From contig LFCR01000004.1 of the NCBI GenBank assembly GCA_001189215.1, positions 162,244 through 226,243 of the forward strand: 64,000 nucleotides of DNA. The letters are read 5' to 3'. This DNA is from Parcubacteria bacterium C7867-008. GTDB taxonomy: Bacteria; Patescibacteriota; Minisyncoccia; Phycocordibacterales; Phycocordibacteraceae. The notes beneath the pieces were generated by a model. The model saw nothing but the letters and a program-made list of their open reading frames with translations. It did no database searches and had not been told where the DNA came from. Below are positions 4,291 through 50,775 of this stretch, one piece after another (position 1 is the first letter of the stretch; each line of letters starts with the position of its first letter). A program made the translations under genes and the position numbers.

Positions 4291-5622
4291 ATGGAACGAA
4301 CGCTCATAGGAGAGCTTAGTAGCTCGGCAGGAGAAACAGTCACTATCCAGGGATCGGTAGATGTGCGCCGCGATCAGGGTAAGCTCGTATTCTTTGATTT
4401 CAGAGATCGCACTGGTTCAGTACAGGGAGTGGTCCTTCCTGGGGATGAGGCACTCATGGAGATCGCTAAGTCGGTACGTAACGAGTTCATCGTTAGTGTT
4501 GATGGAATTGTTAACAAGCGTCCAGAAAAGAATATTCAAACAGACAAGCAAAATGGAGACATCGAGCTTGAAATCAAAGGCATCACGGTACTTGCTGCTG
4601 CAGAAGTACTTCCGTTTGAGCTAGACACGGAACTTAATCTCGATACCTATCTCGACTATCTCCCTCTTACTCTTCGCACCAAGCGCGCTCGCGCTATCTT
4701 CAAAGTGCAGTCTGAGATTGCCCGTGCATACCGTGCATTCCTCAATAGCGAAGGATTCACAGAATTCCAGGCACCAAAACTTATTGGTGATGATGCAGAG
4801 GGAAGCGGTGAAGTATTTGAAGTTCCATACTTCTATGGAAAGACAGCACACCTCGCAACAAGTCCCCAGCTCTATAAGCAGATTATGGTGGGTGCCCTTG
4901 AACGAGTATTTAGCATCGGTATTGTATTTCGTGCAGAGAAGCACAGCACCGCTCGCCACCTAAACGAATACACGTCGATGGATGTGGAGATGGGATACAT
5001 CACTGATCATCGAGATGTGATGAAGATGGAGAATCGTCTCATGCAGTTTATCGCTGCTGAACTTACGAAGACCTGTGCAGCAGAGTTCGCTCTTCTTGAA
5101 GCAGAAGTGCCTGTGGTTCCAGATGAAATTCCTTCTATGAAACTCCGTGCAGCACAGGAGCTTATCTTCAAAGAAACTGGGAAGGATAATCGCAATGAAC
5201 CTGATTTAGAGCCTGAAGATGAACGTTGGCTCTGCGAATGGTCTAAGAAGGAGCATGATTCTGATTTCGTGTTTGTTACGCACTACCCAGTATCCAAGCG
5301 CCCAATGTATACGATGGAAGACGAGGCGGATCCTGGCTTCACTAATGGCTTCGACCTACTCTTCCGTGGTGTTGAAATCACCACCGGTGGTCAACGTCGC
5401 CATGAGTACCAGAACCTCGTAGACGGTATCAAGATGAAGGGTCTTGATCCTGAAAAATTCTCGTACTATCTCCAAGCTTTCAAGTACGGCATTCCTCCGC
5501 ACGGCGGATGGGGTATGGGTCTTGAACGTCTTACCGCTAAATTCCTTGGTCTTGCTAACGTAAAGGAAGCAACACTCTTCCCTCGTGACATTAACCGCAT
5601 CGACACTCTACTTTCCGAATAA
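4291..5622 (+). CDS. class IIb aspartyl/asparaginyl-tRNA synthetase (AsnS / archaeal-type AspS-like)
   Basis: N-terminal OB fold. Motifs FRAEKHSTARHLNEYTSMD and GIPPHGGWGMGLERL. Confidence 0.8.
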   Translation: MERTLIGELSSSAGETVTIQGSVDVRRDQGKLVFFDFRDRTGSVQGVVLPGDEALMEIAKSVRNEFIVSVDGIVNKRPEKNIQTDKQNGDIELEIKGITVLAAAEVLPFELDTELNLDTYLDYLPLTLRTKRARAIFKVQSEIARAYRAFLNSEGFTEFQAPKLIGDDAEGSGEVFEVPYFYGKTAHLATSPQLYKQIMVGALERVFSIGIVFRAEKHSTARHLNEYTSMDVEMGYITDHRDVMKMENRLMQFIAAELTKTCAAEFALLEAEVPVVPDEIPSMKLRAAQELIFKETGKDNRNEPDLEPEDERWLCEWSKKEHDSDFVFVTHYPVSKRPMYTMEDEADPGFTNGFDLLFRGVEITTGGQRRHEYQNLVDGIKMKGLDPEKFSYYLQAFKYGIPPHGGWGMGLERLTAKFLGLANVKEATLFPRDINRIDTLLSE

Positions 5623-5625
5623 CAT

Positions 5626-7047
5626 ATGAAACTCGTCTTCTCAAAGAAATCAATAGACGGAGCTCCTAAAACACATATTCGCATTCGTCTTACAGAAGAA
5701 GCACGTGGCACTAAATGTCTCGTGCGCGAAGGAGACCTAACTATTCTTGAGATTGGTGCAGGTAAGGGAAGTGAGATGGATCTGCACAAGTTTGTGACAC
5801 TGTGTCGTGCGATTGTGAACGGAGCAAAACAGCAGAAAGCAAAGAAGATTGTTCTTCAGTTCGATCGAACGCCAGAACTATTTAAGAATCTTCACCACCT
5901 CACACCAGAACAGATCTCGCAGATCGCTGCAGAGAACTTTGAGATGGCTAACTTTGAGTTCCGTACTTTCAAAACAAAACCAAAAGAAGGATGGAGCGAT
6001 ATTGAAGAGATTCTGTTGTGTGGAAAGTCTTCACCTTCGATCGAAGCTGCTGCAAAGCGTGGTCAGGTAATAGGCCAGGAAGTAAATGGATGTCGTGCAC
6101 TCTCAAACACACCCGGAGGTAGCATGACTCCTCGTGGACTCGCTAAGGCAGCGAAACAAGCCGTAACGGATCTTCCGGTAACCGTTCAGACCATGGGACG
6201 CGCTGAAATTGAAAAGTTGGGTATGGGACTACTTGCAGGAGTGGGTGCGGGTTCAAACAATGAGCCAACCTTTACTGTCATGACATACAAGGGAGGTGCT
6301 GCATCTGCTAAGCCAATAGTTCTTGCAGGTAAGGGTATTACGTTTGATTCAGGAGGTCTCAATCTCAAATCTTCAGGAGGTATATATGAAATGCACATGG
6401 ATATGTCTGGTGCTGCATCAGTTATCCATACCGTTGCACTCGCAGCAAAACTTAAGCTGAAGAAGAACGTCATTGGTCTTATTCCTGCCGCGGAGAATAT
6501 GCTTGGAGCGAATGCAACACGCCCAGGTGATATTCATACGTCACTCTCGGGAAAGACCGTGGAGGTTACCAACACTGATGCAGAAGGACGTCTGATACTG
6601 GCTGATGCGATCACGTATGCAAAGAGACTTAAGCCAGCAATTGTAATTGACGTTGCAACCCTTACGGGTGCCGTGATGGGAGCTCTTGGGCTTTATGCCA
6701 GTGGTGTTATGACACGGGATGACAAATTGAGTGATCAATTTAGAAAGCTTGGGGAAGTAAGTGGAGACTACGTGTGGCCACTACCACTGTGGGATGAATA
6801 CGAGGCATGCGTTAAAGGGACGTTTGGTGACCTGCAAAATGTTGAGCTGGGTGGAACTGGACGATACGGTGGTGCAACAACTGCAGGTATGTTTCTGTGG
6901 CAGTTTGCAAAAGAACTTGATTGTCCGTGGGTGCATCTCGACATTGCATCTCGCATGACGAGTGCTCCAGGAGATGAGTTAGCCAAGGGAGCTGCTGGTG
7001 CTCCGGTCCGTCTCCTCATATCATTTATTGATACATGGAACCCGTAA
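5626..7047 (+). CDS. pepA: leucyl aminopeptidase, M17 family
   Basis: NTDAEGRLILADA signature. 473 aa. Confidence 0.85.
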   Translation: MKLVFSKKSIDGAPKTHIRIRLTEEARGTKCLVREGDLTILEIGAGKGSEMDLHKFVTLCRAIVNGAKQQKAKKIVLQFDRTPELFKNLHHLTPEQISQIAAENFEMANFEFRTFKTKPKEGWSDIEEILLCGKSSPSIEAAAKRGQVIGQEVNGCRALSNTPGGSMTPRGLAKAAKQAVTDLPVTVQTMGRAEIEKLGMGLLAGVGAGSNNEPTFTVMTYKGGAASAKPIVLAGKGITFDSGGLNLKSSGGIYEMHMDMSGAASVIHTVALAAKLKLKKNVIGLIPAAENMLGANATRPGDIHTSLSGKTVEVTNTDAEGRLILADAITYAKRLKPAIVIDVATLTGAVMGALGLYASGVMTRDDKLSDQFRKLGEVSGDYVWPLPLWDEYEACVKGTFGDLQNVELGGTGRYGGATTAGMFLWQFAKELDCPWVHLDIASRMTSAPGDELAKGAAGAPVRLLISFIDTWNP

Positions 7048-9710: not shown

Positions 9711-10775
9711 ATGATTATCTTCGACGCAGCCCGTGTACTCATCCCATTTGTCATCTCGTTCGCCGTAGGTATAGCGGCAGCACCCCTTCTTACGCACTAT
9801 CTATATAAGTACAAGGCGTGGAAGAAGAAAGGGGGGAAAGGGAAGGGTATGGGAGATGATACCGGCACTCCACTCTTTGATGGTCTCCATAAAGAACGGG
9901 AAGTCTCAACACCACGCATGGGTGGCATCTTGGTCTGGGGAACGGTGCTCGCAACCGTACTTGGCCTTGCCATTCTTGGGTGGCTCGTACCTGAACCATT
10001 TGCTGCATTAGACTTTGTTAATCGTGGACAGACCTGGCTACCACTCTTTGCCCTTATCGTAGGAGGTCTTGCCGGTCTTGCTGATGATGTTCTTGAGGTA
10101 ACAAAGAGTGCTGGAGGTCTTTCCCTTAAGTGGCGTCTCCTTATTGTTGCGACCTTTGGTCTCTTTGCTGGTTGGTGGTTCTACGCAAAGCTCGGTGTAT
10201 CTGCAGTTGGTCTGCCGTTCGTTGGTGCGATACCGCTTGGTCTCTTCTTTATTCCATTCTTCGTGATAGTGGTACTCGCTATTTATGCGAGTGGTGTGAT
10301 TGATGGTATTGATGGCCTGGCTGGAGGCATCTTTGCCATTATCTTTATGGCGTATGCTGCTATCGCCTTTGCACAGAACCAGGTAGCACTTGCGGCACTT
10401 GCTGCCAGTATCTCTGGGGCAACCTTTGCCTTCCTTTGGTTTAATATTCCGCCTGCTCGCTTCTATCTTTCAGAGACCGGTAGCATGGCACTCACTATGA
10501 CCCTTGCCGTTATAGCGTTCTCGGCAGACGTACTTGGTGATGGTGTTGGTGTTGCCGTGCTACCAATCATTGCCTTTCCTCTTTTCATAACCGTGGTAAC
10601 AAGCATGCTTCAGGTATTCTTCAAGAAAGTATTCAAACGAAAGCTTTTCCACATTGCACCTATTCATCATCACTTTGAAGTTCTTGGGTGGCCTGCGTAT
10701 AAGGTGACGATGCGATATTGGGTTATTACCATTATCGCGAGTATATTTGGTATTGCTATCGCATTACTTAAGTAG
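9711..10775 (+). CDS. mraY: phospho-N-acetylmuramoyl-pentapeptide transferase
   Basis: Polytopic. TPRMGG motif. Adjacent to ftsW and murG. Confidence 0.85.
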   Translation: MIIFDAARVLIPFVISFAVGIAAAPLLTHYLYKYKAWKKKGGKGKGMGDDTGTPLFDGLHKEREVSTPRMGGILVWGTVLATVLGLAILGWLVPEPFAALDFVNRGQTWLPLFALIVGGLAGLADDVLEVTKSAGGLSLKWRLLIVATFGLFAGWWFYAKLGVSAVGLPFVGAIPLGLFFIPFFVIVVLAIYASGVIDGIDGLAGGIFAIIFMAYAAIAFAQNQVALAALAASISGATFAFLWFNIPPARFYLSETGSMALTMTLAVIAFSADVLGDGVGVAVLPIIAFPLFITVVTSMLQVFFKKVFKRKLFHIAPIHHHFEVLGWPAYKVTMRYWVITIIASIFGIAIALLK

Positions 10776-38523: not shown

Positions 38524-39123
38524 ATGGATAGAGTTGATGATCTTGCACGTGCCTTCGAGCGATTCCCGGGTATTGGCCCCCGGCAAGCTAAGCGCTTTGT
38601 ATATCACCTGCTCAGCACGAATGTGAATGATCGTAATCGATTAGCAGATCTTATCGCTCGTATAGGAGACAGCGTTGCCCAGTGTCAGGAGTGCATGCGG
38701 TACTGGAGTGGGTCAGGTGACCTCTGTATTTATTGTGCAGATCGTTCTCGTGACGACTCCATACTTATGGTGGTGGAGAAGGATCAGGATCTTGCAGCTA
38801 TTGAACGTACCGGCGCATATCGTGGGCGCTATTTTGTACTTGGTGGTGTACTTACTCTTTCAGGCAAAGGAGCAATACGTGAAGCTGATCTTATTCAGCG
38901 TGTAGAGCGACGAAGTCATGAGGGACTACAGGAAATCATTCTTGCACTCTCTGCTACCAGTGAAGGCGAGCATACTGCAGATCATCTACGGGAACGACTC
39001 TCACCACTACGTGAGCATGTGAAGTTAACGGTGCTTGGTCGGGGTCTCGCTACCGGTTCTGAGCTTGAATACGCAGACTCTCCTACCCTCTCAAGTGCGT
39101 TACAGAATCGTAAGGAAACCTAG
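38524..39123 (+). CDS. recR: recombination protein RecR
   Basis: FERFPGIGPRQAKR HhH. C4 zinc finger CQECMRY..CIYC. Toprim. Confidence 0.85.
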   Translation: MDRVDDLARAFERFPGIGPRQAKRFVYHLLSTNVNDRNRLADLIARIGDSVAQCQECMRYWSGSGDLCIYCADRSRDDSILMVVEKDQDLAAIERTGAYRGRYFVLGGVLTLSGKGAIREADLIQRVERRSHEGLQEIILALSATSEGEHTADHLRERLSPLREHVKLTVLGRGLATGSELEYADSPTLSSALQNRKET

Positions 39124-40007
39124 TGGCGAGTAGGAAACTGCTCGCGTGTTTGATTAAAGATTTCTAGACGCACCGGATCATCTATAAGTCCTCGAGGTGG
39201 TATGCCTTGTTTCTCAACCTGTACTCGTTGAATAGCTGCATACGCTTGTTTGTATACCTGAGCTGTTTCAAATTTCCCAAGATGGACCGCGTATTGTTGC
39301 ATTCTGAATAACTGGAAACCAATCTGATCAACAATAGCTCGTTGCACAGGATGTATGCCAAGCGCTTTATTATTGTTGGCCATCCAGAGTCCTGCTAACT
39401 CCTCCACTACGGGTTGGCCAATACCTACCACCGTTCGTGCAACATTTAGCCGAGGAGCCAGGTCCGTTGAATCCTGATTTCGGTAGTAATCAATAGAGCC
39501 TAACTTGCCTCGTTCTATTTCATTTCGTATAGCAGTTATCTTCTTATCTATTCCGCTGGTACCAAATGTAACGTCCACAGCGAGAGCAAGTACTTCTGAA
39601 TCTTGGCCTGGCATATTCCACTCCACAACCATATCTACCTTGTTTACGAAGTCATCGTAGCGTGCACTACGCAGCGTGCTCGCGTTACTCCCCAACCACT
39701 CGCCCAGTTCTGACTGCATAAGCATAATTGCCTCAAAGGTATCCGCAATCTTCTTAGAATTAGCTTCGGTAACAGATCGTTCACTATTGAATTTGCGTTC
39801 AAGACGATCGGCGAGTGCAATATCACTTTGTACACGCGCTGTACCATACTTCTGTATGAAATCTTTCTCCTGAATTACATATTCGGGGCTAGTTAGGACT
39901 TCTGCTTGCGCACGCTCATAGGCGCTTTCCATGAGTGGAGAAAGTTCAACGCGTCGCTCGCGTTTAGCATCAATTGCATGTATGAGCCTAGCCTCAGGGT
40001 TATACAT
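39120..40007 (-). CDS. hypothetical protein (about 295 aa)
   Basis: Start moved to MYNPEARL because the ORF-track start overlaps the rplU terminator. Confidence 0.45.
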   Translation of the reverse strand: MYNPEARLIHAIDAKRERRVELSPLMESAYERAQAEVLTSPEYVIQEKDFIQKYGTARVQSDIALADRLERKFNSERSVTEANSKKIADTFEAIMLMQSELGEWLGSNASTLRSARYDDFVNKVDMVVEWNMPGQDSEVLALAVDVTFGTSGIDKKITAIRNEIERGKLGSIDYYRNQDSTDLAPRLNVARTVVGIGQPVVEELAGLWMANNNKALGIHPVQRAIVDQIGFQLFRMQQYAVHLGKFETAQVYKQAYAAIQRVQVEKQGIPPRGLIDDPVRLEIFNQTREQFPTRH

Positions 40008-40026
40008 GGTTGTAGTATACGGCACA

Positions 40027-40064
40027 AAGAAAGAAGCCCGCATCTCGCGGGCTTCTTTCTTTTA
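40027..40064 (-). terminator. intrinsic terminator after rplU (bidirectional-looking)
   Basis: agaaagaagcccgc-atctc-gcgggcttctttct flanked by T/A runs. Confidence 0.65.
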
Positions 40065-42406: not shown

Positions 42407-42778
42407 GTGACCAGGTTCATTTCGTTCAATGAAGTCGCTCGATACGAGATTCAAGTTGGCATCAAACACGCAAGCACAAGGCATCGTCTGTTATTTAGCT
42501 TGGACGAAGACAAAGTCCGCAGAATCGCGAACCGAGCCGGCAAGAACATGCACGACAGGCACTGGGAGGCCAGACGTGCAATACCGGAAGCGATTGAAGC
42601 AGTACTGGCACCTGAATCACGCCGTGGTGCATATGCAACCGCATATAGCTCCGCCGTGTCGAAGATCTTCAGTGATAGGAGCGCAAAAGCGCGAAGACAG
42701 GCTGCACAGCGGCGACGGGAAGCCAACATGCCTGTTCGACCCGCACAACAACTCCACTTCCGATTCGTTCTGGACTGA
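42407..42778 (+). CDS. 123-aa basic GC-rich protein of unknown function (GTG start)
   Basis: GGAGAG upstream of GTG. Arg-rich. Terminator follows. Confidence 0.4.
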   Translation: MTRFISFNEVARYEIQVGIKHASTRHRLLFSLDEDKVRRIANRAGKNMHDRHWEARRAIPEAIEAVLAPESRRGAYATAYSSAVSKIFSDRSAKARRQAAQRRREANMPVRPAQQLHFRFVLD

Positions 42779-43663: not shown

Positions 43664-43728
43664 TATTGACAATTTAAGTAATTGTTGTTAATATAGTTTC
43701 AGAATATTCCTCCTGTAGAAAGAACCGT

Positions 43729-43884
43729 CATGAGCATAGTGCCTCAAGGAATGGTTTCTCTCGACGACTGGCTGACGCGATTCATTATCGCAATTGGCTG
43801 CATCGCCCTCGTGTGGACTCCAATATATCTATGGGGTGCATACAAAGAATATCGAGAGCGTGTTCGAAAGAGACCCTCGAAGAA
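43729..43884 (+). CDS. 51-aa single-TM micro-protein (below ORF-track cutoff)
   Basis: MSIVPQGMVSLDDWLTRFIIAIGCIALVWTPIYLWGAYKEYRERVRKRPSKKL. Own terminator. Confidence 0.35.
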
Positions 43885-43900
43885 ACTCTAACCGCCCACC

Positions 43901-43938
43901 GCCCCCGGACATCTGTCTGGGGGTTATCGTTTGTCTTT
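43901..43938 (+). terminator. intrinsic terminator
   Basis: cccccgga-catctg-tctggggg then ttatcgtttgtctttt. Confidence 0.6.
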
Positions 43939-43965
43939 TGACCAACCATACAAATAATTGTATAT
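43937..43965 (+). promoter_or_regulatory. sigma70-like promoter: TTGACC, 17 nt spacer, TATATT
   Basis: Consensus-like -35 and -10 with ideal spacing. SD GAGGA 8 nt before ATG 44004. Confidence 0.55.
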
Positions 43966-44003
43966 TCACAGCGGACGTTTTTCACAACCAGAGGATATGG
44001 TCC

Positions 44004-45875
44004 ATGAGACTCATAGCAATCATCGTGATGCTTCTGTCCATGGTCAACGTGGATGTGAGCTGGGCAAAAGACAAGCCAATCGGCGGCCTCTGTGGAGGCG
44101 CCTATGTCGGCTCCAACACCTGCGTATGGAATGAGGACACTCATGAGTGGACCGAAACATACGTGGGCTGGGACAACTGGGAGTGGCAGACTATCGCCAA
44201 CCAGCCAGAACTTGCTCCGGCTATCCGTCGGATGCATCTCCCCCGGCAGGTGCCGGTTGAGAAGAGATACTCGATCAGTCTGAATACCAAAGCGTGTTTG
44301 AAGCCGGAGTATCATCTCCTTCTCGGCGCTGCGGTTATGCCTTCGAACCGAAAGCCAATTGCGACCACGCGTCGTGTGGTGATCATAAATGTTGAAGGCG
44401 GAGACTGGCCTGAAGAATCCCGCATCTGGCCGCATCTGGGTATCAATTACGTGGGGACGGTCGCAAAACAGGAAGGCTTCGACGTCGTTCTGTACGACGA
44501 GCTTATTCAGAGGCGCAAGCCGCTGGAAGAACTTATTCGTCCCGGCGACATCGTCGGCCTCAGCCTTGTCAGCACCGGCATCGAACGTGGCGTCCTCGTC
44601 GCGCAAGAAGCTAAGGCACTTGGTGCCCGCTACGTTATCGCTGGAAACGACTCGGCGATGTTCCGTGCCCGGCAGCTCCTCGAGCTTCCTGACCGGCCCA
44701 TCGACGCCGTCTTCACCAGCAACAGCGTCGTGACACTCCGGGAGTTCTTCCGAAATGCAGACGCGGTGATCGCAGGTTCGATGCAGATCGAGCAAGTGGC
44801 AACCGCACCTGAACAAGTGCCGTACGTCTCCAACGAACACGCAGGTGTTGCGGTGGAGCGTAAGGCATACACCGAAGAAGACTTCTTCTTGGTCCCAAAC
44901 CTCTCACTCTTCAGCGACGAGTACTGGGAGCTGGTTCGAACTGCGTATCGTTCGCAGTTCGGACACAAGCACCAAGACCCTGCCAACGTCCGTAATGCCA
45001 TCGCGCTTCTTGCGCAAGGCTGTGGACGCGCCGGAATGGGCGATATCTGCGACTACTGCACCATCCGCCATGTGGCGAATGTGGTGCAGCCGCCCCCGGG
45101 GTATCTAGAGGAGACTCTCGCCACCTATCGGGCACAGGGTGTGAATACCTTCTTCAATGTGACGGACTCAGCCTTTGAGATGGGAGTGCTCGCAAAACAG
45201 CTCGAAGAAGCTGGTCCGGTGGACACACTCATCATCTACGGTAGAGCGCAGGCAATCGCGCAGCGTCCAGACCTCCTTGAACGGTGGAAAGGATGTGTGA
45301 CCGAACGTCTGCTCATCAATTGCGGTATGGACTCAGGAAGTGAGCGTATCCTGCAAACCGGCATCAATAAGTCCGGAAGTAAGGTGGGTTCAAGGCTTGA
45401 AGAGAACTATCGGGCGCTGGCCAACATCAAGGCGGCGGGCCCCAAGGTTCACTTGCACTTCTCTGTTATCTTCGGTTCACCGGGAGAGACGCATGAGTCG
45501 TGCGAGGCTACACTGCATTTCGTGCAGCATGCGATCGACACGCTCGGTGAGCAGCTCGACGTCGTCGAGGGCGATATTTTCTGGGTTAACTTCGGAGCAC
45601 CGTGCAGTGAGATCTTCACGGACTACAAAGCAGCACAGAAGCGCGCTCTGCTTGCTGGGAAGAGTATATCCCGGGACGAGTGGCACCAGTACTTCGCCCG
45701 TCACGCTGATGAGCTTGCCGTGCCGGAGGAATCCCAGCACGCCTGGTACACCTTCTTTACGAGCATCACCATCAAAGAGGCGTGGGCGTACAATGCTCAG
45801 GTCCGTGGCATGCTCGAACAACTACCTGGCCACATCACCGGTCGGAACTATGCGTTCAAGCCACCTACGGTGTGA
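44004..45875 (+). CDS. B12-binding-domain radical-SAM-like protein with N-terminal hydrophobic/Trp-Cys-rich extension
   Basis: Rossmann-like B12-binding region (RRVVIINVEGGDWPE..GDIVGLSLVS). Cys cluster CGRAGMGDICDYC (CX8CX2C). GC-rich. Start set after the internal terminator and promoter, not at 43794. Confidence 0.55.
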   Translation: MRLIAIIVMLLSMVNVDVSWAKDKPIGGLCGGAYVGSNTCVWNEDTHEWTETYVGWDNWEWQTIANQPELAPAIRRMHLPRQVPVEKRYSISLNTKACLKPEYHLLLGAAVMPSNRKPIATTRRVVIINVEGGDWPEESRIWPHLGINYVGTVAKQEGFDVVLYDELIQRRKPLEELIRPGDIVGLSLVSTGIERGVLVAQEAKALGARYVIAGNDSAMFRARQLLELPDRPIDAVFTSNSVVTLREFFRNADAVIAGSMQIEQVATAPEQVPYVSNEHAGVAVERKAYTEEDFFLVPNLSLFSDEYWELVRTAYRSQFGHKHQDPANVRNAIALLAQGCGRAGMGDICDYCTIRHVANVVQPPPGYLEETLATYRAQGVNTFFNVTDSAFEMGVLAKQLEEAGPVDTLIIYGRAQAIAQRPDLLERWKGCVTERLLINCGMDSGSERILQTGINKSGSKVGSRLEENYRALANIKAAGPKVHLHFSVIFGSPGETHESCEATLHFVQHAIDTLGEQLDVVEGDIFWVNFGAPCSEIFTDYKAAQKRALLAGKSISRDEWHQYFARHADELAVPEESQHAWYTFFTSITIKEAWAYNAQVRGMLEQLPGHITGRNYAFKPPTV

Positions 45876-45898
45876 TTCGATTCTCTATTAGTTCCTTG

Positions 45899-45932
45899 TC
45901 CCGCGTCTACATGGCGCGGGATTTTCTTTTTA
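45899..45932 (+). terminator. intrinsic terminator
   Basis: tcccgcg-tctacatgg-cgcggga then ttttctttttat. Confidence 0.65.
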
Positions 45933-45967: not shown

Positions 45968-45972
45968 TCGTG

Positions 45973-46044
45973 TGACCCTACGGGGAATCGAACCCCGATT
46001 TCCTGCGTGAGAGGCGGGCGTCCTAACCGTTAGACGATAGGGCC
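45973..46044 (-). tRNA. tRNA-Glu (anticodon CTC), no encoded CCA
   Basis: Cloverleaf GGCCCTA..TCGATTCC..TAGGGTCA. Anticodon loop ctCTCac. One C-A mismatch in the anticodon stem. Confidence 0.75.
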
Positions 46045-46128: not shown

Positions 46129-46437
46129 CTAGTTAATCTTGACCACCTGGATGGGCGATACAAAGTACGGGAATCCTTCGAGCCGTAAGGTCCAGGTAGA
46201 AGTTACTTCCAGGATCTTGTGGTTGGTATCTGGCTTTCCCTCGAACGCCACCAGATCCCCAACAGCAAGAGCCTTTCTAATAACGGCGTTATGCCGCTTC
46301 TCATCCGAGGAATCCCCAATGAAGTGTTTGGGAACATTTGCTGCACGCACAACGCTCGTGTGCACTTTCAAACCGAAATTGTGCGATCGACCATTGTCTC
46401 TTCGTACTCTTCGTGCGCCAGAACTCCAGCCTGCCAT
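46129..46437 (-). CDS. 102-aa protein of unknown function, moderately GC-rich
   Basis: AGGGGAG before the ATG (MAGWSSGARR). Terminator downstream. Confidence 0.45.
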   Translation of the reverse strand: MAGWSSGARRVRRDNGRSHNFGLKVHTSVVRAANVPKHFIGDSSDEKRHNAVIRKALAVGDLVAFEGKPDTNHKILEVTSTWTLRLEGFPYFVSPIQVVKIN

Positions 46438-46500
46438 TGTGAAATTCTCCCCTACTAACCTAAAGCGCACTATACTCCCCTTTTTCTGTTTGTATAGAAG

Positions 46501-47793
46501 TTATCTACTCTTCCATTGCAGGCTCTGACGAACCAACAGTTCCTGATCTTCAGGTGCACTTAGGAGTGCTTCAGTGATGCGTTCCGTACGAATAGACTGA
46601 GATCCCTTAATGAGGACTGCATCACCCTTACCAATGAGTTCAGTGAGGGCGGTAGCAGCTTCCTCTGACGTACTAAATTGTTGAATGGAGGTTTCGGACA
46701 TTCCTGCCTCTAGTGCTGCTGCTGCAATGCCACGTGCACGAATACCCACCGTCACAAGAAGATCTGTCTGGCGAGCAGCTAGGGTGCCAATGCGCTCATG
46801 CTCTTCGTGTGAGTAGCGACCAAGTTCGAGCATATCTCCGAGTATGGCAATACGGCGTAGGTTTTGTTCACCTGCAACGAGATTAAGCGATGCAAGTGCT
46901 TCAACGGTTGCCGTTGGTGATGAGTTATAGGAATCATCGATTAGGACAGCACCATCCTTACCACTTAAAATACGTGCACGACCAGGAGGTGGTGCAAAGG
47001 CCTTCAATCCTTCAAGCGCGTCTTCAACAGAAAGCCCGAGCGCTACCGCTGTTGCAACTGCCGCAGCTGGTGCATAGAGTGCTGGTTGTCCGACGGTGTC
47101 ATATACCGTAAGTGGAGATTCTTCGTCTGAGACTTTTAGTATCGCTTGCATACCTGACACACGACCACCTTCTACAAACACCTTTGGGTGTGTGATCCGA
47201 ACATCCGCTTGTTCGCCCACGCCAAACGTAAACGTACGCGCCGTGAGACGCGCACTCATAGCAATAGCATATTCATCTTCTGCATTCATGATGAGTGGCA
47301 TGCCTTCATCAAGTGCATACGCTGGATAGAACTCTTCTTCACGTACGGCTGCTGGTGTTGGATACGCTTCAACATGTACGGGCACTTCAGGAAGCTTTGT
47401 TACCACCACCGCGTCTGGTAGTGCGATCTTCATAATCTTAGCCAAATCACCAGGACGGTCGGCTCCCACCTCAAGTACCAGAAGATTTGGATAGTGGGTT
47501 GGGAAAAACCGTACTGCAAATGCTTCACCAAATACTCTAAGCCATGCAGCGGGGCTTGCCCACGGACTACCCACACCAATTATCGTGAGAGGAACACCAA
47601 ATTCACTGTTAAAACTCTTTTCACTTCTGCGGACATAATAGCCAGTTGAAAGAGCTGCAGCCACCGCATCTTTCGTAGAGGTCTTTCCCACACTTCCCGT
47701 CACCATCACAATCTTCGGCTTGTACTTCCGCACTATGCCAGCAGCAAGCCAGCCAAGTACTAGTGCGAAGAGGGTGCGGAGAAGTGATTTCAT
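46501..47793 (-). CDS. murF: UDP-MurNAc-tripeptide D-Ala-D-Ala ligase
   Basis: VTGSVGKTSTKD P-loop. Mur ligase domains. Confidence 0.85.
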   Translation of the reverse strand: MKSLLRTLFALVLGWLAAGIVRKYKPKIVMVTGSVGKTSTKDAVAAALSTGYYVRRSEKSFNSEFGVPLTIIGVGSPWASPAAWLRVFGEAFAVRFFPTHYPNLLVLEVGADRPGDLAKIMKIALPDAVVVTKLPEVPVHVEAYPTPAAVREEEFYPAYALDEGMPLIMNAEDEYAIAMSARLTARTFTFGVGEQADVRITHPKVFVEGGRVSGMQAILKVSDEESPLTVYDTVGQPALYAPAAAVATAVALGLSVEDALEGLKAFAPPPGRARILSGKDGAVLIDDSYNSSPTATVEALASLNLVAGEQNLRRIAILGDMLELGRYSHEEHERIGTLAARQTDLLVTVGIRARGIAAAALEAGMSETSIQQFSTSEEAATALTELIGKGDAVLIKGSQSIRTERITEALLSAPEDQELLVRQSLQWKSR

Positions 47794-47799
47794 AAATAG

Positions 47800-49527
47800 T
47801 TATCGAGTGTATGTTGCCCGATCTGGTGGCACATCATAATAATTGATCAAGAAGTGCGTAAGATCAATGAAGGGGTGGGTGAGAGTTTCAGATGCATACT
47901 GCACACCTTGAGGCTTTTTCGTATAGAGTAGAATGATGTACTTAGGATCTGAGGCTGGGAAATATCCGAAGAATGAGTGGAAATAGAGATTTTCGTAGTA
48001 TTTTCCATCAGGTCCTGCAATCTGTGCGGTACCCGTCTTTGCGGCTACGCTCATCTCAGGAATCTTCACGGTGCCGTTTCCAAGCTTATCGTCCACCACT
48101 TTCACCAGCATGCGAGTAGTGTCATCCACCGCAGTGGCACTAAAAACTTGCTGAGCATCACCCCACGAAAGTTTCTTGATCACCCCAGACTCCAATCGTA
48201 TACCGGTTGCGAGATGCGGGGTAACAATCTTTCCATGGTTTGCGAGTGCCCCCAAGCCTCGAATCGTCTCCACGGGCGTGGTCGCAATACCCTGCCCGAA
48301 GGAGGCCGTATCATACTCCACATCGCGAGGACTTTCCAAGTTATGGATATCACCCCGAATCTCACTAGGTAAGTCTATGCCTGTTTCAGTACCAAAGCCA
48401 AGTTTGGTGAAATAGGTCCGGAATCCAGAGTGCCCTACCTTAGTAGCAATAAACGAAGCACCGACGTTAAGGGACTGGGAGAGGATCTCCTGCATTGGTA
48501 TGGTACCGCGCGCCTTGAGGTCGTAGTTACAAATACGCTTCTTGTTCACTTCAATACACCCCGTATCGTTATACACCGTCTCTGGGGTTATTACTCCGGC
48601 GTCCAGACCAGACGCCATGGTGAGTGCTTTGAATATAGAACCAAACTCATAACGACTCTCTACCAAGTGATTACTAAAATGATTACTATCCTCCCCTTGG
48701 AAGTTATTGGGATCAAATGATGGATACACATCCATAGCAATGATCTCTCCGGTGGCAGGGTCCATGATGATGCCACCCGTTTCCTCACTTCCATACTGAT
48801 CATTAATTGCCTTAAGAGTCTGGTCTAGTTTCTCTAGCACAATTGGCTCAATCGATGTGATGACATCTCCCTGCCGTGCGGTCTTAGGATCTGATACGAC
48901 GCTATCAAGGTTTGCAAAGAGTTCAGCAAAGAAGTTGCCGAAGGCACCATCTCCCTGCTGATGAAGTACATCATCGTAGTACCGCTCAAGCCCGAATCGT
49001 CCTGCGATGGTGTTGTCGTCAAGGTATCCCGTGAAGCCAATAGACTGTGCTGCTTTCTCTTTTGCGGGATAGGTACGCCAACGCTCACGTTCAACGATTA
49101 CACCTGGAATATCTTTGGCAGAGAGTGCACGTCCCACTTCATCATCCACATGGTGCCCGATAACTTCATAGGGATCTTCCTTCTTCTGTGCCGAAGCAAA
49201 GAACTCATCTCTATTTGCATCCGGTACTGCTTCAAGAATTGCAGCATAGGCTGCTTCTGGATCCTTAAGGTGTGATGGATCAATAGCAACCAGGAAACCT
49301 GTTGCGACAGTCGCTGCTGAAAGATAGGTACCATCCTTACGAGTAAAGAGAATAGAGCCGCGATCATAGAGTTCCTGACTCGAGCTCACATACTGACGCT
49401 CTGCACGAAGAGAATATTCCTGAGCGTGTACGATCTGTACGAAATAGAGGCGCAGTACGAGAAAGAGCGCCAAGAAAATGATGACGCCAGAGACGATACG
49501 TAATCGCAATCTGAACGCCCTTCGCAT
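47800..49527 (-). CDS. ftsI: class B penicillin-binding transpeptidase (FtsI-like)
   Basis: SIFK (SxxK), SLN and KTGTA motifs. dcw-cluster position. Confidence 0.8.
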   Translation of the reverse strand: MRRAFRLRLRIVSGVIIFLALFLVLRLYFVQIVHAQEYSLRAERQYVSSSQELYDRGSILFTRKDGTYLSAATVATGFLVAIDPSHLKDPEAAYAAILEAVPDANRDEFFASAQKKEDPYEVIGHHVDDEVGRALSAKDIPGVIVERERWRTYPAKEKAAQSIGFTGYLDDNTIAGRFGLERYYDDVLHQQGDGAFGNFFAELFANLDSVVSDPKTARQGDVITSIEPIVLEKLDQTLKAINDQYGSEETGGIIMDPATGEIIAMDVYPSFDPNNFQGEDSNHFSNHLVESRYEFGSIFKALTMASGLDAGVITPETVYNDTGCIEVNKKRICNYDLKARGTIPMQEILSQSLNVGASFIATKVGHSGFRTYFTKLGFGTETGIDLPSEIRGDIHNLESPRDVEYDTASFGQGIATTPVETIRGLGALANHGKIVTPHLATGIRLESGVIKKLSWGDAQQVFSATAVDDTTRMLVKVVDDKLGNGTVKIPEMSVAAKTGTAQIAGPDGKYYENLYFHSFFGYFPASDPKYIILLYTKKPQGVQYASETLTHPFIDLTHFLINYYDVPPDRATYTR

Positions 49528-49528
49528 A

Positions 49529-49822
49529 TTAGCGGCCAGCGAACGTCAGCCCGTCTGGAAGGTTTGCTGCAGCTACATATTGCACATGTGCAGGACGTAC
49601 GAATCCAAGAGAATAGGGGTTCGTGGAATCAAGAGTACTGATTGATGCATAATACTTGGTTTCAAGCGTACCAATTGCTGCCTGCGCATCACGAATGGAA
49701 CTCAGTGCCTGTGTTTGCCAGGTGGCAAAGAGGATCGTAGTGACGATCAGTCCCAGATAGACCATCACCAACGCGCCGGCAGAAACGGTAAGGACAGGAA
49801 TGAAACGAGTTGGCATGGTCAT
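49529..49822 (-). CDS. ftsL: cell division protein FtsL-like (small bitopic)
   Basis: 97 aa. Single TM. Between rsmH and ftsI. Confidence 0.55.
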   Translation of the reverse strand: MTMPTRFIPVLTVSAGALVMVYLGLIVTTILFATWQTQALSSIRDAQAAIGTLETKYYASISTLDSTNPYSLGFVRPAHVQYVAAANLPDGLTFAGR

Positions 49823-49827
49823 ACAGG

Positions 49828-50775
49828 TTATACAAGTGATAATGCGGATCGATCGAACGCTTCAGTGCAGGCAGCTTGTCCGTTGCAGCGTTCAAAGACA
49901 CGGAGCTTCGCACTGCGTGAGCGCGGATTCTTCGTCATCTCTGCAGTGGTTGGTACGAGTGGTTTCTTGTTAACGAGCTTCCCAGTTCCCTGGTACACCG
50001 CATCACGGAACATTCCCTTTACGATGCGGTCTTCAATGCTATGGAAGGTAATAACAGCAATACGACCACCAGGAGCGAGATGTGTGAGTGCACCAGTGAG
50101 CCCAGCGCGCAGTGCACCAAGCTCATCGTTCACAGCAATACGAAGTGCCTGGAAGGTTTTTGTTGCAGGGTGTAGGCGGCGATGCTGATACCAGCTTGGT
50201 GTTCCTGCAGTTACTGCCTCTGCAAGTTCAGATGTGGTGAGGATAGGGCTGTTCTTACGGGTCGTCACAATAGAACGAGCAATACCTCGTGAGAACCGTT
50301 CTTCGCCGTACGTAAAGATAATGTCTGAGAGTTCTTCCTCAGTTGCTGAATTAACAAGGTCGGCTGCAGTCTTCCCTTCTTCAGGAGAACCGTAGGTCAT
50401 GTAGAGAGGCTCTTCTGCTTTAAATGAGAAACCTCTGCCAGCAGTTAAGTGGAAGCTACTCCACCCAAGATCAAAGAGTGCTTTGTCTATAGTCTCAATA
50501 CCTTCGTGCTCAAGAATAGCTTCCAGGTTTCGGAAGTTGTCGTGAGCAAGTATGGTGCGTGGACCTTCTGAATCTTGTACAACGAGAGCTGCTCGTTTGA
50601 TTGCGTCTTCATCTGCATCAATACCAATAAGGGTGCCTTCTGCACCAAGGCGACTGCGTAGTTCACGGAAGTGCCCTGCTCCACCAATGGTTCCATCTAC
50701 AACAACGTCATCAGCCTGTATATCAAGACTTTCGAGACACTCGTTCAATAGAACACTTTCGTGGACCTGTTCCAT
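49828..50775 (-). CDS. rsmH: 16S rRNA (cytosine1402-N4)-methyltransferase
   Basis: HESVLLNE..VDGTIGGAGH N-terminus. Confidence 0.85.
   Translation of the reverse strand: MEQVHESVLLNECLESLDIQADDVVVDGTIGGAGHFRELRSRLGAEGTLIGIDADEDAIKRAALVVQDSEGPRTILAHDNFRNLEAILEHEGIETIDKALFDLGWSSFHLTAGRGFSFKAEEPLYMTYGSPEEGKTAADLVNSATEEELSDIIFTYGEERFSRGIARSIVTTRKNSPILTTSELAEAVTAGTPSWYQHRRLHPATKTFQALRIAVNDELGALRAGLTGALTHLAPGGRIAVITFHSIEDRIVKGMFRDAVYQGTGKLVNKKPLVPTTAEMTKNPRSRSAKLRVFERCNGQAACTEAFDRSALSLV

Follow-up and report, generated by a model that had tools for sequence, protein, structure and literature searches.

Class B radical S-adenosylmethionine (SAM) enzymes such as TsrM, TokK, CysS, MgmA, Mmp10 and AprD4 share the same plan, with an N-terminal Rossmann domain, a partial TIM-barrel and a C-terminal substrate domain, and their cluster motif is CX3CX2C. 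AprD4 has the B12-binding domain and is said not to use cobalamin. In QueE, long insertions separate the first two cysteines (Cys1 and Cys2) with the CX2C part kept. Variant cluster spacings, CX8CX2C included, are documented in the radical SAM superfamily, the RadicalSAM.org megaclusters ranging from CX4 to CX11 with CX2C kept; the CX8CX2C groups there are part of megacluster 4 (biotin/thiazole-synthase-like) and lie outside the B12-domain group (PMC9477430). PoyB and PoyC (TIGR03975, rSAM_ocin_1) likewise belong to the radical SAM enzymes having a B12 domain, and their Cys1-Cys2 loop is expanded, to CX7CX2C (PMC5682303). The present analysis concerns the gene AB203_01245 of Parcubacteria bacterium C7867-008, located at 44004-45875 on the forward strand of a 64,000-nucleotide stretch of contig LFCR01000004.1 (hereafter the window), and its homologues in the Candidate Phyla Radiation (CPR).

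In the reading that we consider rather probable, AB203_01245 is a CPR-specific B12-type radical SAM enzyme, with a longer cluster loop and a dispensable N-terminal accessory domain on the cytoplasmic side. The protein, annotated as a "hypothetical protein", is identical to the translation of 44004-45875: one long open reading frame (ORF) of the + strand ends at 45875 and, from the ATG at 44004, gives 623 amino acids (aa). The gene and the parts of its enzyme core, as recognised by Pfam, Foldseek, alignment and an AlphaFold2 (AF2) model, are as follows:

44004..45875, + strand: coding sequence of AB203_01245, a 623-aa B12-like-domain radical SAM family protein (100% match to P0001, Parcubacteria bacterium C7867-008)
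44370..44789, + strand: Rossmann-type B12-binding-like domain, residues 123-262, with RRVVIINVE...WPHLG...GT...DE...GLS...GND...DAVFTSNS (Pfam, invariant columns, alignment and Foldseek)
44991..45578, + strand: radical SAM barrel, residues ~330-525, with NVTDS, GMDSG, IFGSPGET and the invariant C500 (Pfam, motif alignment and fold match)
45021..45059, + strand: putative cluster-binding loop, C340-X8-C349-X2-C352, the invariant cysteines of which align to Cys1-3 of CX3CX2C
45579..45872, + strand: helical aromatic-rich C-terminal domain, residues 526-623, with the invariant W527, W560, F564, W581, F585 and T586 (alignment and AF2)

The AF2 model of AB203_01245, built with 105 family sequences, reached a predicted local distance difference test (pLDDT) value of 92.6 and a predicted template-modelling (pTM) score of 0.80. 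When it was compared with known structures by Foldseek, AprD4 was the best match (2e-15), followed by TsrM, MgmA, MiaB, TokK and CysS, with E values from 2e-15 to 1e-8. The core motifs align with those of the class B enzymes, at a sequence identity of 12-16%. Both the model and the alignment contain a partial TIM-barrel fold with its SAM-binding motifs (GGE-like, ribose and GxIxGxxE-like), and in a MAFFT alignment NVTDS, GMDSG and IFGSPGET line up with the usual SAM-binding motifs of relatives having the canonical cluster motif; the core motifs other than the cluster loop (TDS, GMDSG and IFGSPGET) are intact. The Rossmann region also aligns to these relatives, and its Foldseek matches are AprD4, TsrM and MgmA. 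As modelled, AB203_01245 is predicted to have the fold of radical SAM enzymes with a Rossmann-type B12-binding domain, in agreement with the first-pass annotation of this DNA, made by a model without database searches, which had described a radical-SAM-like protein with a B12-binding domain.

At the level of sequence profiles, PF02310 (B12-binding) matched residues 141-235 with an E value of 6.6e-6 (26.4 bits, below the gathering cut-off of 32.1) and PF04055 (Radical_SAM) residues 343-507 with 1e-3 (19.7 bits, below the gathering cut-off of 29.5), a precomputed PF04055 match being present in many orthologues. The NCBIfam matches are weak and partial, all of them below the curated cut-offs. No solved relative was found when the family profile was compared with the PDB sequences, the sole match being RimO TM_1862 (E 0.65). 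The sequence matches to MiaB and RimO are weak and cover the GSPGET region, and the fold match to MiaB (7mjx) has an E value of 1e-10; AB203_01245 differs from both in having neither the N-terminal three-Cys auxiliary cluster motif nor the TRAM domain. Its core is acidic (isoelectric point of 5.4), unlike that of typical RNA-binding enzymes, which argues mildly against an RNA substrate.

Compared with the CX3CX2C enzymes of class B, AB203_01245 has CX8CX2C, an extra N-terminal domain of ~120 residues and a fourth invariant cysteine, C500. The latter (45501-45503) is the last residue of GSPGETxESC, where the beta-6 motif ends, and all 105 aligned members have it, as do the nearest outliers, P0127 and P0130; it is absent from more remote relatives and may be a catalytic or redox residue. 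As for the C-terminal domain (residues 526-623), it is presumed from its sequence to bind the substrate.

C340-GRAGMGDI-C349-DY-C352 is the sole motif of the C..C..C type in AB203_01245, no CxxxCxxC having been found anywhere in the protein, and its three cysteines are invariant in 105/105 aligned family members; the first-pass annotation had rightly singled it out as the only plausible 4Fe-4S motif. CX8CX2C is present in 126 of the 136 sequences of the close set, whereas five have X6 or X7 and five gave no motif match. Alignment to class B families for the spacing of the cysteines had been proposed as a check. When aligned by MAFFT with remote relatives having the canonical motif, C340 falls on Cys1 of "RGCP..C.FC" and C349 and C352 on Cys2 and Cys3, with five residues inserted. 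Among the relatives as a whole, loop spacing forms a graded series of X3, X4, X6, X7, X8, X9 and X12. The remote ones (25-33% identity) have X6 in 38 cases, X7 in nine, X8 in eight, X9 in eight and X3 in 13, so that the expanded loops X6-X9 predominate: the motif is indeed noncanonical, although less exceptional than had been implied. Judging from the alignment, C340, C349 and C352 would be homologous to the three cysteines of the canonical CX3CX2C, the Cys1-Cys2 loop being longer by five residues. CX8CX2C is best taken for the homologous cluster site with its loop lengthened and does not speak against radical SAM chemistry. With its series from X3 to X12, the family is a natural case in which to study the tolerance of the radical SAM cluster loop to insertions.

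A word-indexed search with AB203_01245 returned 212 proteins at E <= 1e-3, and an exhaustive search 112 cluster representatives. All named close matches are from the CPR (Parcubacteria/Paceibacteria, Uhrbacteria, Berkelbacteria, Microgenomates, Kerfeldbacteria, Doudnabacteria and others), with the exception of records of metagenome-assembled genomes (MAGs) titled generically "uncultured Gammaproteobacteria". The mean column identity of the family is 51% over 105 aligned sequences, and its members are annotated in databases as "hypothetical protein" or, generically, as "YgiQ". When names of remote homologues were sought from the cluster entries, the sole return was "radical SAM protein [Nanoarchaeota archaeon]", and a literature search on radical SAM enzymes of CPR/Patescibacteria, or on radical SAM enzymes with a signal peptide, found nothing on the AB203_01245 family. 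The family is a CPR-specific, uncharacterised subfamily of a known B12-domain radical SAM class, not a system of a new kind. It is nameless and lacks both a curated model and a solved relative, and an enzyme of ~620 residues kept at ~45-50% identity across CPR phyla with minimal genomes is probably important to them. Two long-form paralogues (i.e., with the N-terminal domain) are carried on separate contigs, L019 and L049, of the same Paceibacteria MAG (MBR_H10.111).

The N-terminal module of AB203_01245 begins with MRLIAIIVMLLSMVNVDVSWA, then ...GGLCGGAYVGSNTCVWNEDTHEWTETYVGWDNWEWQ (translation of 44004-45875), and can be divided in two:

44004..44066, + strand: residues 1-21, signal-peptide-like, with M-R, a 12-residue hydrophobic helix and NVDVSWA (hydropathy and AF2)
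44067..44369, + strand: residues 22-122, Trp-rich accessory domain, with a clade-specific C30/C40 pair and a low-confidence linker at 112-122 (AF2 and substitution rates)

Of the 14 Trp and 10 Cys of the protein, 6 and 3, respectively, fall within residues 1-122. Family-wide, Trp amounts to 4.1% of the module vs. 2.0% of the core, and the C30/C40 pair is confined to the clade of AB203_01245. The module had been described as rich in both residues; this stands for Trp, twofold enriched over the core, while the richness in Cys comes down to a clade-specific pair and is not a family trait. The consensus starts with M, K/R, 12-13 hydrophobic residues, (R/K/N/Q)-V-(D/E)-h-x-Y and a conserved Pro; it often continues with LWGNP..I.YD...HVW.N.N...E.W, a variable stretch, VPVKK, a strand and an amphipathic helix, after which RR-F-V-L-I-N-V-E marks the start of the Rossmann domain. 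Relative to the sister genome (L010), residues 22-122 have a ratio of non-synonymous to synonymous substitution rates (dN/dS) of 0.13, residues 1-21 one of 0.41 and the core one of 0.057. The module is thus real coding sequence under purifying selection, and the in-frame extension that had been noted as unexpected is borne out by its conservation and by the value of 0.13.

The same fold of this module was predicted by AF2 in the full-length protein and in the isolated domain (pLDDT 89.9), with a helix at 2-11, a strand at 14-25, a hairpin at 38-43/48-53, helices at 58-77, a strand at 81-93 and a helix at 95-111, i.e., a predicted folded alpha/beta domain. No fold neighbour of this N-domain was found in the PDB, and the Pfam scan of 46 N-domains gave no recurring family, the AB203_01245 module itself being without a Pfam match. 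Nor did a profile search with the N-domain and a search with a consensus-like single sequence yield anything in an index of 5.8 billion proteins, from which the family itself was not recovered either. A local hidden Markov model (HMM) of the module scored 105-122 bits on the long forms. Covariation (mutual information with average product correction, APC) over 92 N-domains was dominated by clade signal and flagged the pair 30/40. The module would offer a new small domain, with a fold without known relative.

Concerning the start of the gene, the following signals flank the coding sequence:

43938..43966, + strand: promoter-like site upstream of the gene, TTGACC, a 17-nt spacer and TATATT (consensus match only)
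43990..43995, + strand: Shine-Dalgarno-like AGAGGA, 8 nt 5' of the ATG (read from the sequence)
45898..45922, + strand: terminator-like hairpin 3' of the stop codon (sequence scan)

The promoter-like site sits just past another terminator-like hairpin (43901-43924), which closes the preceding transcription unit; together with the downstream hairpin, it suggests that AB203_01245 is a monocistronic unit. A start at 44004 had been assumed at first pass, with the reservation that it might be mis-called, and in-frame ATGs were indeed found at codons 77 and 112. That one of them is the real start, with a non-coding upstream part, seems barely credible to us, even though codon 112 lies near the point where the natural short forms (i.e., without the module) begin. 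No Shine-Dalgarno-like sequence is apparent 5' of either ATG; it is upstream of 44004 that both the Shine-Dalgarno-like and the promoter-like signal lie. The N-terminal 122 codons, with a dN/dS of 0.17 against the sister genome, are kept in more than 100 orthologues, which begin with the equivalent Met followed by K/R, and AF2 predicts a confident fold for this part. The stretch upstream of 44337, the internal ATG that had been considered, is therefore coding, and translation starts at ATG 44004. The mechanically longest ORF, from TTG 43794, was rejected: it crosses the upstream hairpin and the promoter-like site and has no counterpart in the orthologues.

The module is present in ~80-85% of the family members. 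Among 41 loci from species-representative genomes (GTDB collection), it lies in the same ORF as the enzyme in ~33 and is absent from 7-8; a separate small ORF, for which the first-pass annotation had proposed to look, was never seen, either in these loci or in the 64-kb window, where the HMM found no second copy of the module. At the DNA level, the short-form genes of L001, L003, L008 and L009 have in-frame stops just upstream and 160-290 bp of intergenic sequence to the preceding gene, and the module HMM found nothing in the short-form loci in any frame. The short forms are nested among the long forms: most of them have long-form nearest neighbours, with core identities of 72-89% (81% for P0100, 84% for P0067, 72% for P0013 and 75% for P0023), and are much less similar to other short forms. 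Partial, eroded modules were seen in P0029, P0037 and L013. This scatter of short forms, each next to long-form relatives, implies that the module would have been lost independently at least eight times and, because it was lost so often, it appears not to be needed for catalysis.

A gene for a TrmB-like (PF01978) regulator, divergent and 40-180 bp upstream, accompanies 9 of the 12 short or partial loci (L001, L008, L009, L013, L029, L038, L041, L043 and L047) vs. 1 of the 35 long ones (L011; Fisher p 1.5e-6). These TrmB-like neighbours comprise at least three distinct TrmB lineages. Over the 47 non-redundant loci (the window and the homologous ones), no neighbour family is common to more than 15, that one being the TrmB-like regulator family.

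The repeated loss of the module also bears on the proposal, made at first pass, that it could be the fused leader and core of a peptide that is synthesised ribosomally and undergoes post-translational modification (RiPP), modified in cis or in trans as in borosin-type fusions. Several remote relatives (e.g., P0165, E 1.5e-26) have TIGR03975, the model of the PoyC-type RiPP C-methyltransferases, as their best NCBIfam match, in all cases far below its cut-off. PoyC-type enzymes share the expanded loop, as CX7CX2C (PMC5682303), and the module evolves faster than the enzyme, as this explanation would have it. AB203_01245 itself, however, has no TIGR03975 match at E <= 1 and a loop one residue longer than that of PoyC and PoyB, and no precursor peptide or RiPP gene context was found at the loci examined, among which no protease, transporter or other RiPP-type neighbour is conserved. 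Moreover, the module is predicted as a folded alpha/beta domain of ~100 residues, unlike a leader or core peptide, and its losses, at least eight in number, left the enzyme in place under strong constraint. No separate copy of the module exists nearby or elsewhere in the window, and one would hardly expect a single-turnover fusion of enzyme and substrate in a gene that is kept across CPR phyla. The predicted fold, the neighbours, the losses and the lack of a separate ORF leave this explanation hardly any probability in our view.

The sequence ahead of K22 raises a different question. Residues 1-21 have a hydropathy of 2.08 (Kyte-Doolittle, 19-residue window; KD19), against a family median of 1.83, and the N-termini of the family show the n- and h-regions of the Sec type, with an n-region net charge of +1.3 and an h-region of 12 residues (median). 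A number of points weigh against the reading of an intracellular enzyme with an accessory domain. Every Pfam and NCBIfam match of AB203_01245 falls short of the curated cut-offs, pLDDT alone says nothing of helix packing in the N-domain, and the module evolves fast, residues 1-21 with their dN/dS of 0.41 in particular. By the rules of sequence, the N-terminus bears every hallmark of a Sec signal: K/R occupies position 2 in 70 of ~88 sequences, the hydrophobic stretch has 12-13 residues, KD19 is >= 1.6 in 83% of the long forms, and S-W-A stands ahead of K22 in AB203_01245. Small residues at -3/-1 (AXA-type) are found in the AB203_01245 clade and one sister clade, and the same two clades carry invariant Cys pairs, C-x7-12-C and W-C-x2-14-C, which bracket loops of hypervariable length and sequence. 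Such a pattern looks like that typical of disulfide-closed loops, as in disulfide-bonded domains outside the cytoplasm, and is surprising in a domain that we place in the cytoplasm. A divergent homologue, L026 (1483-1800), with a shorter module, has a lipobox-like start, MKKILAILLVLGC. The n-, h- and c-region architecture and its hydropathy, the AXA-type sites, the Cys pairs in exactly those two clades, the L026 N-terminus and the fast evolution of the N-domain all favour a genuine Sec signal peptide, cleaved after S-W-A21, with the Trp-rich module and the whole enzyme exported or anchored outside.

We nevertheless regard that explanation as quite improbable. A second hydrophobic segment was not found, the linker helix having a median KD19 of 0.44 and never reaching 1.6 in any member, so that export of the module would carry the enzyme out with it. 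The passenger of Sec export would be a predicted [4Fe-4S]/SAM enzyme without a stop-transfer segment, the SAM-dependent domain leaving the cell too, away from the SAM and low-potential reductants that such an enzyme needs and that are cytoplasmic. For export in a folded state, the twin-arginine motif is absent from AB203_01245 (N-terminus MRLIAII) and from the family N-termini, and a lipobox, [LVI][ASTVI][GAS]C, terminating the h-region is absent in AB203_01245 and was seen in L026 alone. In most of the family, positions -3 and -1 are not occupied by small residues (e.g., VDVQY-NK and VDIVY-TG), and the would-be cleavage site falls within the predicted strand 14-25, a conserved amphipathic strand with alternating R/K15, V16, D/E17, V18, x and Y20. 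Basic residues at +1 and +3 of the mature end disfavour Sec export, and the residues after A21 are KDKP, with Lys at both positions. Finally, orthologues with 72-89% identical cores are without any signal: the N-termini of the short forms are hydrophilic and basic, from which these proteins must be cytoplasmic. With no second hydrophobic segment and with module-less orthologues in the cytoplasm, export of the long forms is unlikely.

A membrane hairpin, with the N-domain outside and the enzyme inside, was also considered and rejected, the linker helix being too weakly hydrophobic in every member. We conclude that the catalytic domain would be cytoplasmic and the module on the cytoplasmic side, with the first helix (residues 2-12) either buried in the core of the domain or dipping into the membrane. 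The module is most likely a dispensable accessory or tethering domain of the cytoplasmic side; that it would be a cleaved export signal or a fused substrate is in each case unlikely. The Cys pairs and the AXA-type sites keep alive the idea of a genuine export of the module or even of the entire enzyme, to which we assign a very small probability. A signal peptide by sequence rules, borne by an enzyme that should be cytoplasmic, calls for caution in the prediction of CPR secretomes. Regarding the Cys pairs themselves, C30...C40 lies at 44091-44123, with equivalents in P0002-P0012 and P0014-P0028, and L012 has both pairs.

As for the way in which this CPR-specific radical SAM enzyme could work, C340, C349 and C352 would be the ligands of the [4Fe-4S] cluster, by which SAM would be cleaved reductively to the 5'-deoxyadenosyl radical; this radical would then take a hydrogen atom from the substrate. 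For its part, the Rossmann domain would either deliver a cobalamin-bound methyl group or be free of cofactor, as in AprD4, and the aromatic-rich C-terminal domain would bind the substrate. The N-terminal module could position or tether the enzyme, or recruit the substrate; a tether might be at the inner membrane face, via the all-hydrophobic first helix. The isolated position of the gene and its high conservation across the CPR phyla make a conserved component of the cell the probable substrate. A more specific proposal, tentative and on balance doubtful, is that the helix and the N-domain tether the enzyme to the inner face of the CPR membrane, where it would modify a membrane or envelope component such as lipids scavenged from the host, the lineages without a tether having placed the gene beside a TrmB-type regulator. 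CPR bacteria are not known to synthesise lipids themselves; were tethering true, it would hint at a remodelling of lipids or of the envelope in organisms unable to make their own membranes. In viperin, a radical SAM domain stands behind an N-terminal membrane-associating helix, and this cytoplasmic enzyme is localised to the membrane. Viperin serves as an analogy for the tethering idea only: it is eukaryotic and unrelated in sequence to AB203_01245, its helix is amphipathic, and it has neither a B12-like domain nor an intervening folded domain.

AB203_01245 is surrounded by CPR housekeeping genes (TruB, YqeY, RmuC and L21), with MurF, FtsI and RsmH on the other strand. A tRNA-Glu (CTC) gene lies at 45972-46044 on the opposite strand, between AB203_01245 and MurF. 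The MurF-FtsI-FtsL-like-RsmH division/cell-wall cluster extends over 46501-50775 (-), and AB203_01245 meets its distal MurF end. The radical SAM gene is convergent to MurF in the window as well as in L010 and L028, and this orientation excludes co-transcription with the cluster. No cobalamin or SAM riboswitch was found upstream of the gene in the window or in eight homologous loci.

Several other ORFs near AB203_01245 have no Pfam match: 39120-40043 (-) with 307 codons, 42407-42778 (+) with 123 and 46129-46470 (-) with 113. The 53-codon ORF at 43730-43891 (+), with one hydrophobic segment, lies between a promoter-like site (43666-43694) and the terminator-like hairpin at 43901-43924; it has neither a Pfam match nor a tblastn match in the sister-genome locus L010 and may not be a gene. 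Concerning the homologous loci, L047 carries at 4850-7036 (+) an ORF for a 729-residue XerC/D-type tyrosine recombinase with, from a reading of its sequence only, an apparent intein-like insertion ending in ...HN/SFATD. In L019, a LOOT RNA (Rfam RF03000, 76 bits) lies at 10126-10243 (+), ~400 nt downstream of the radical SAM gene.

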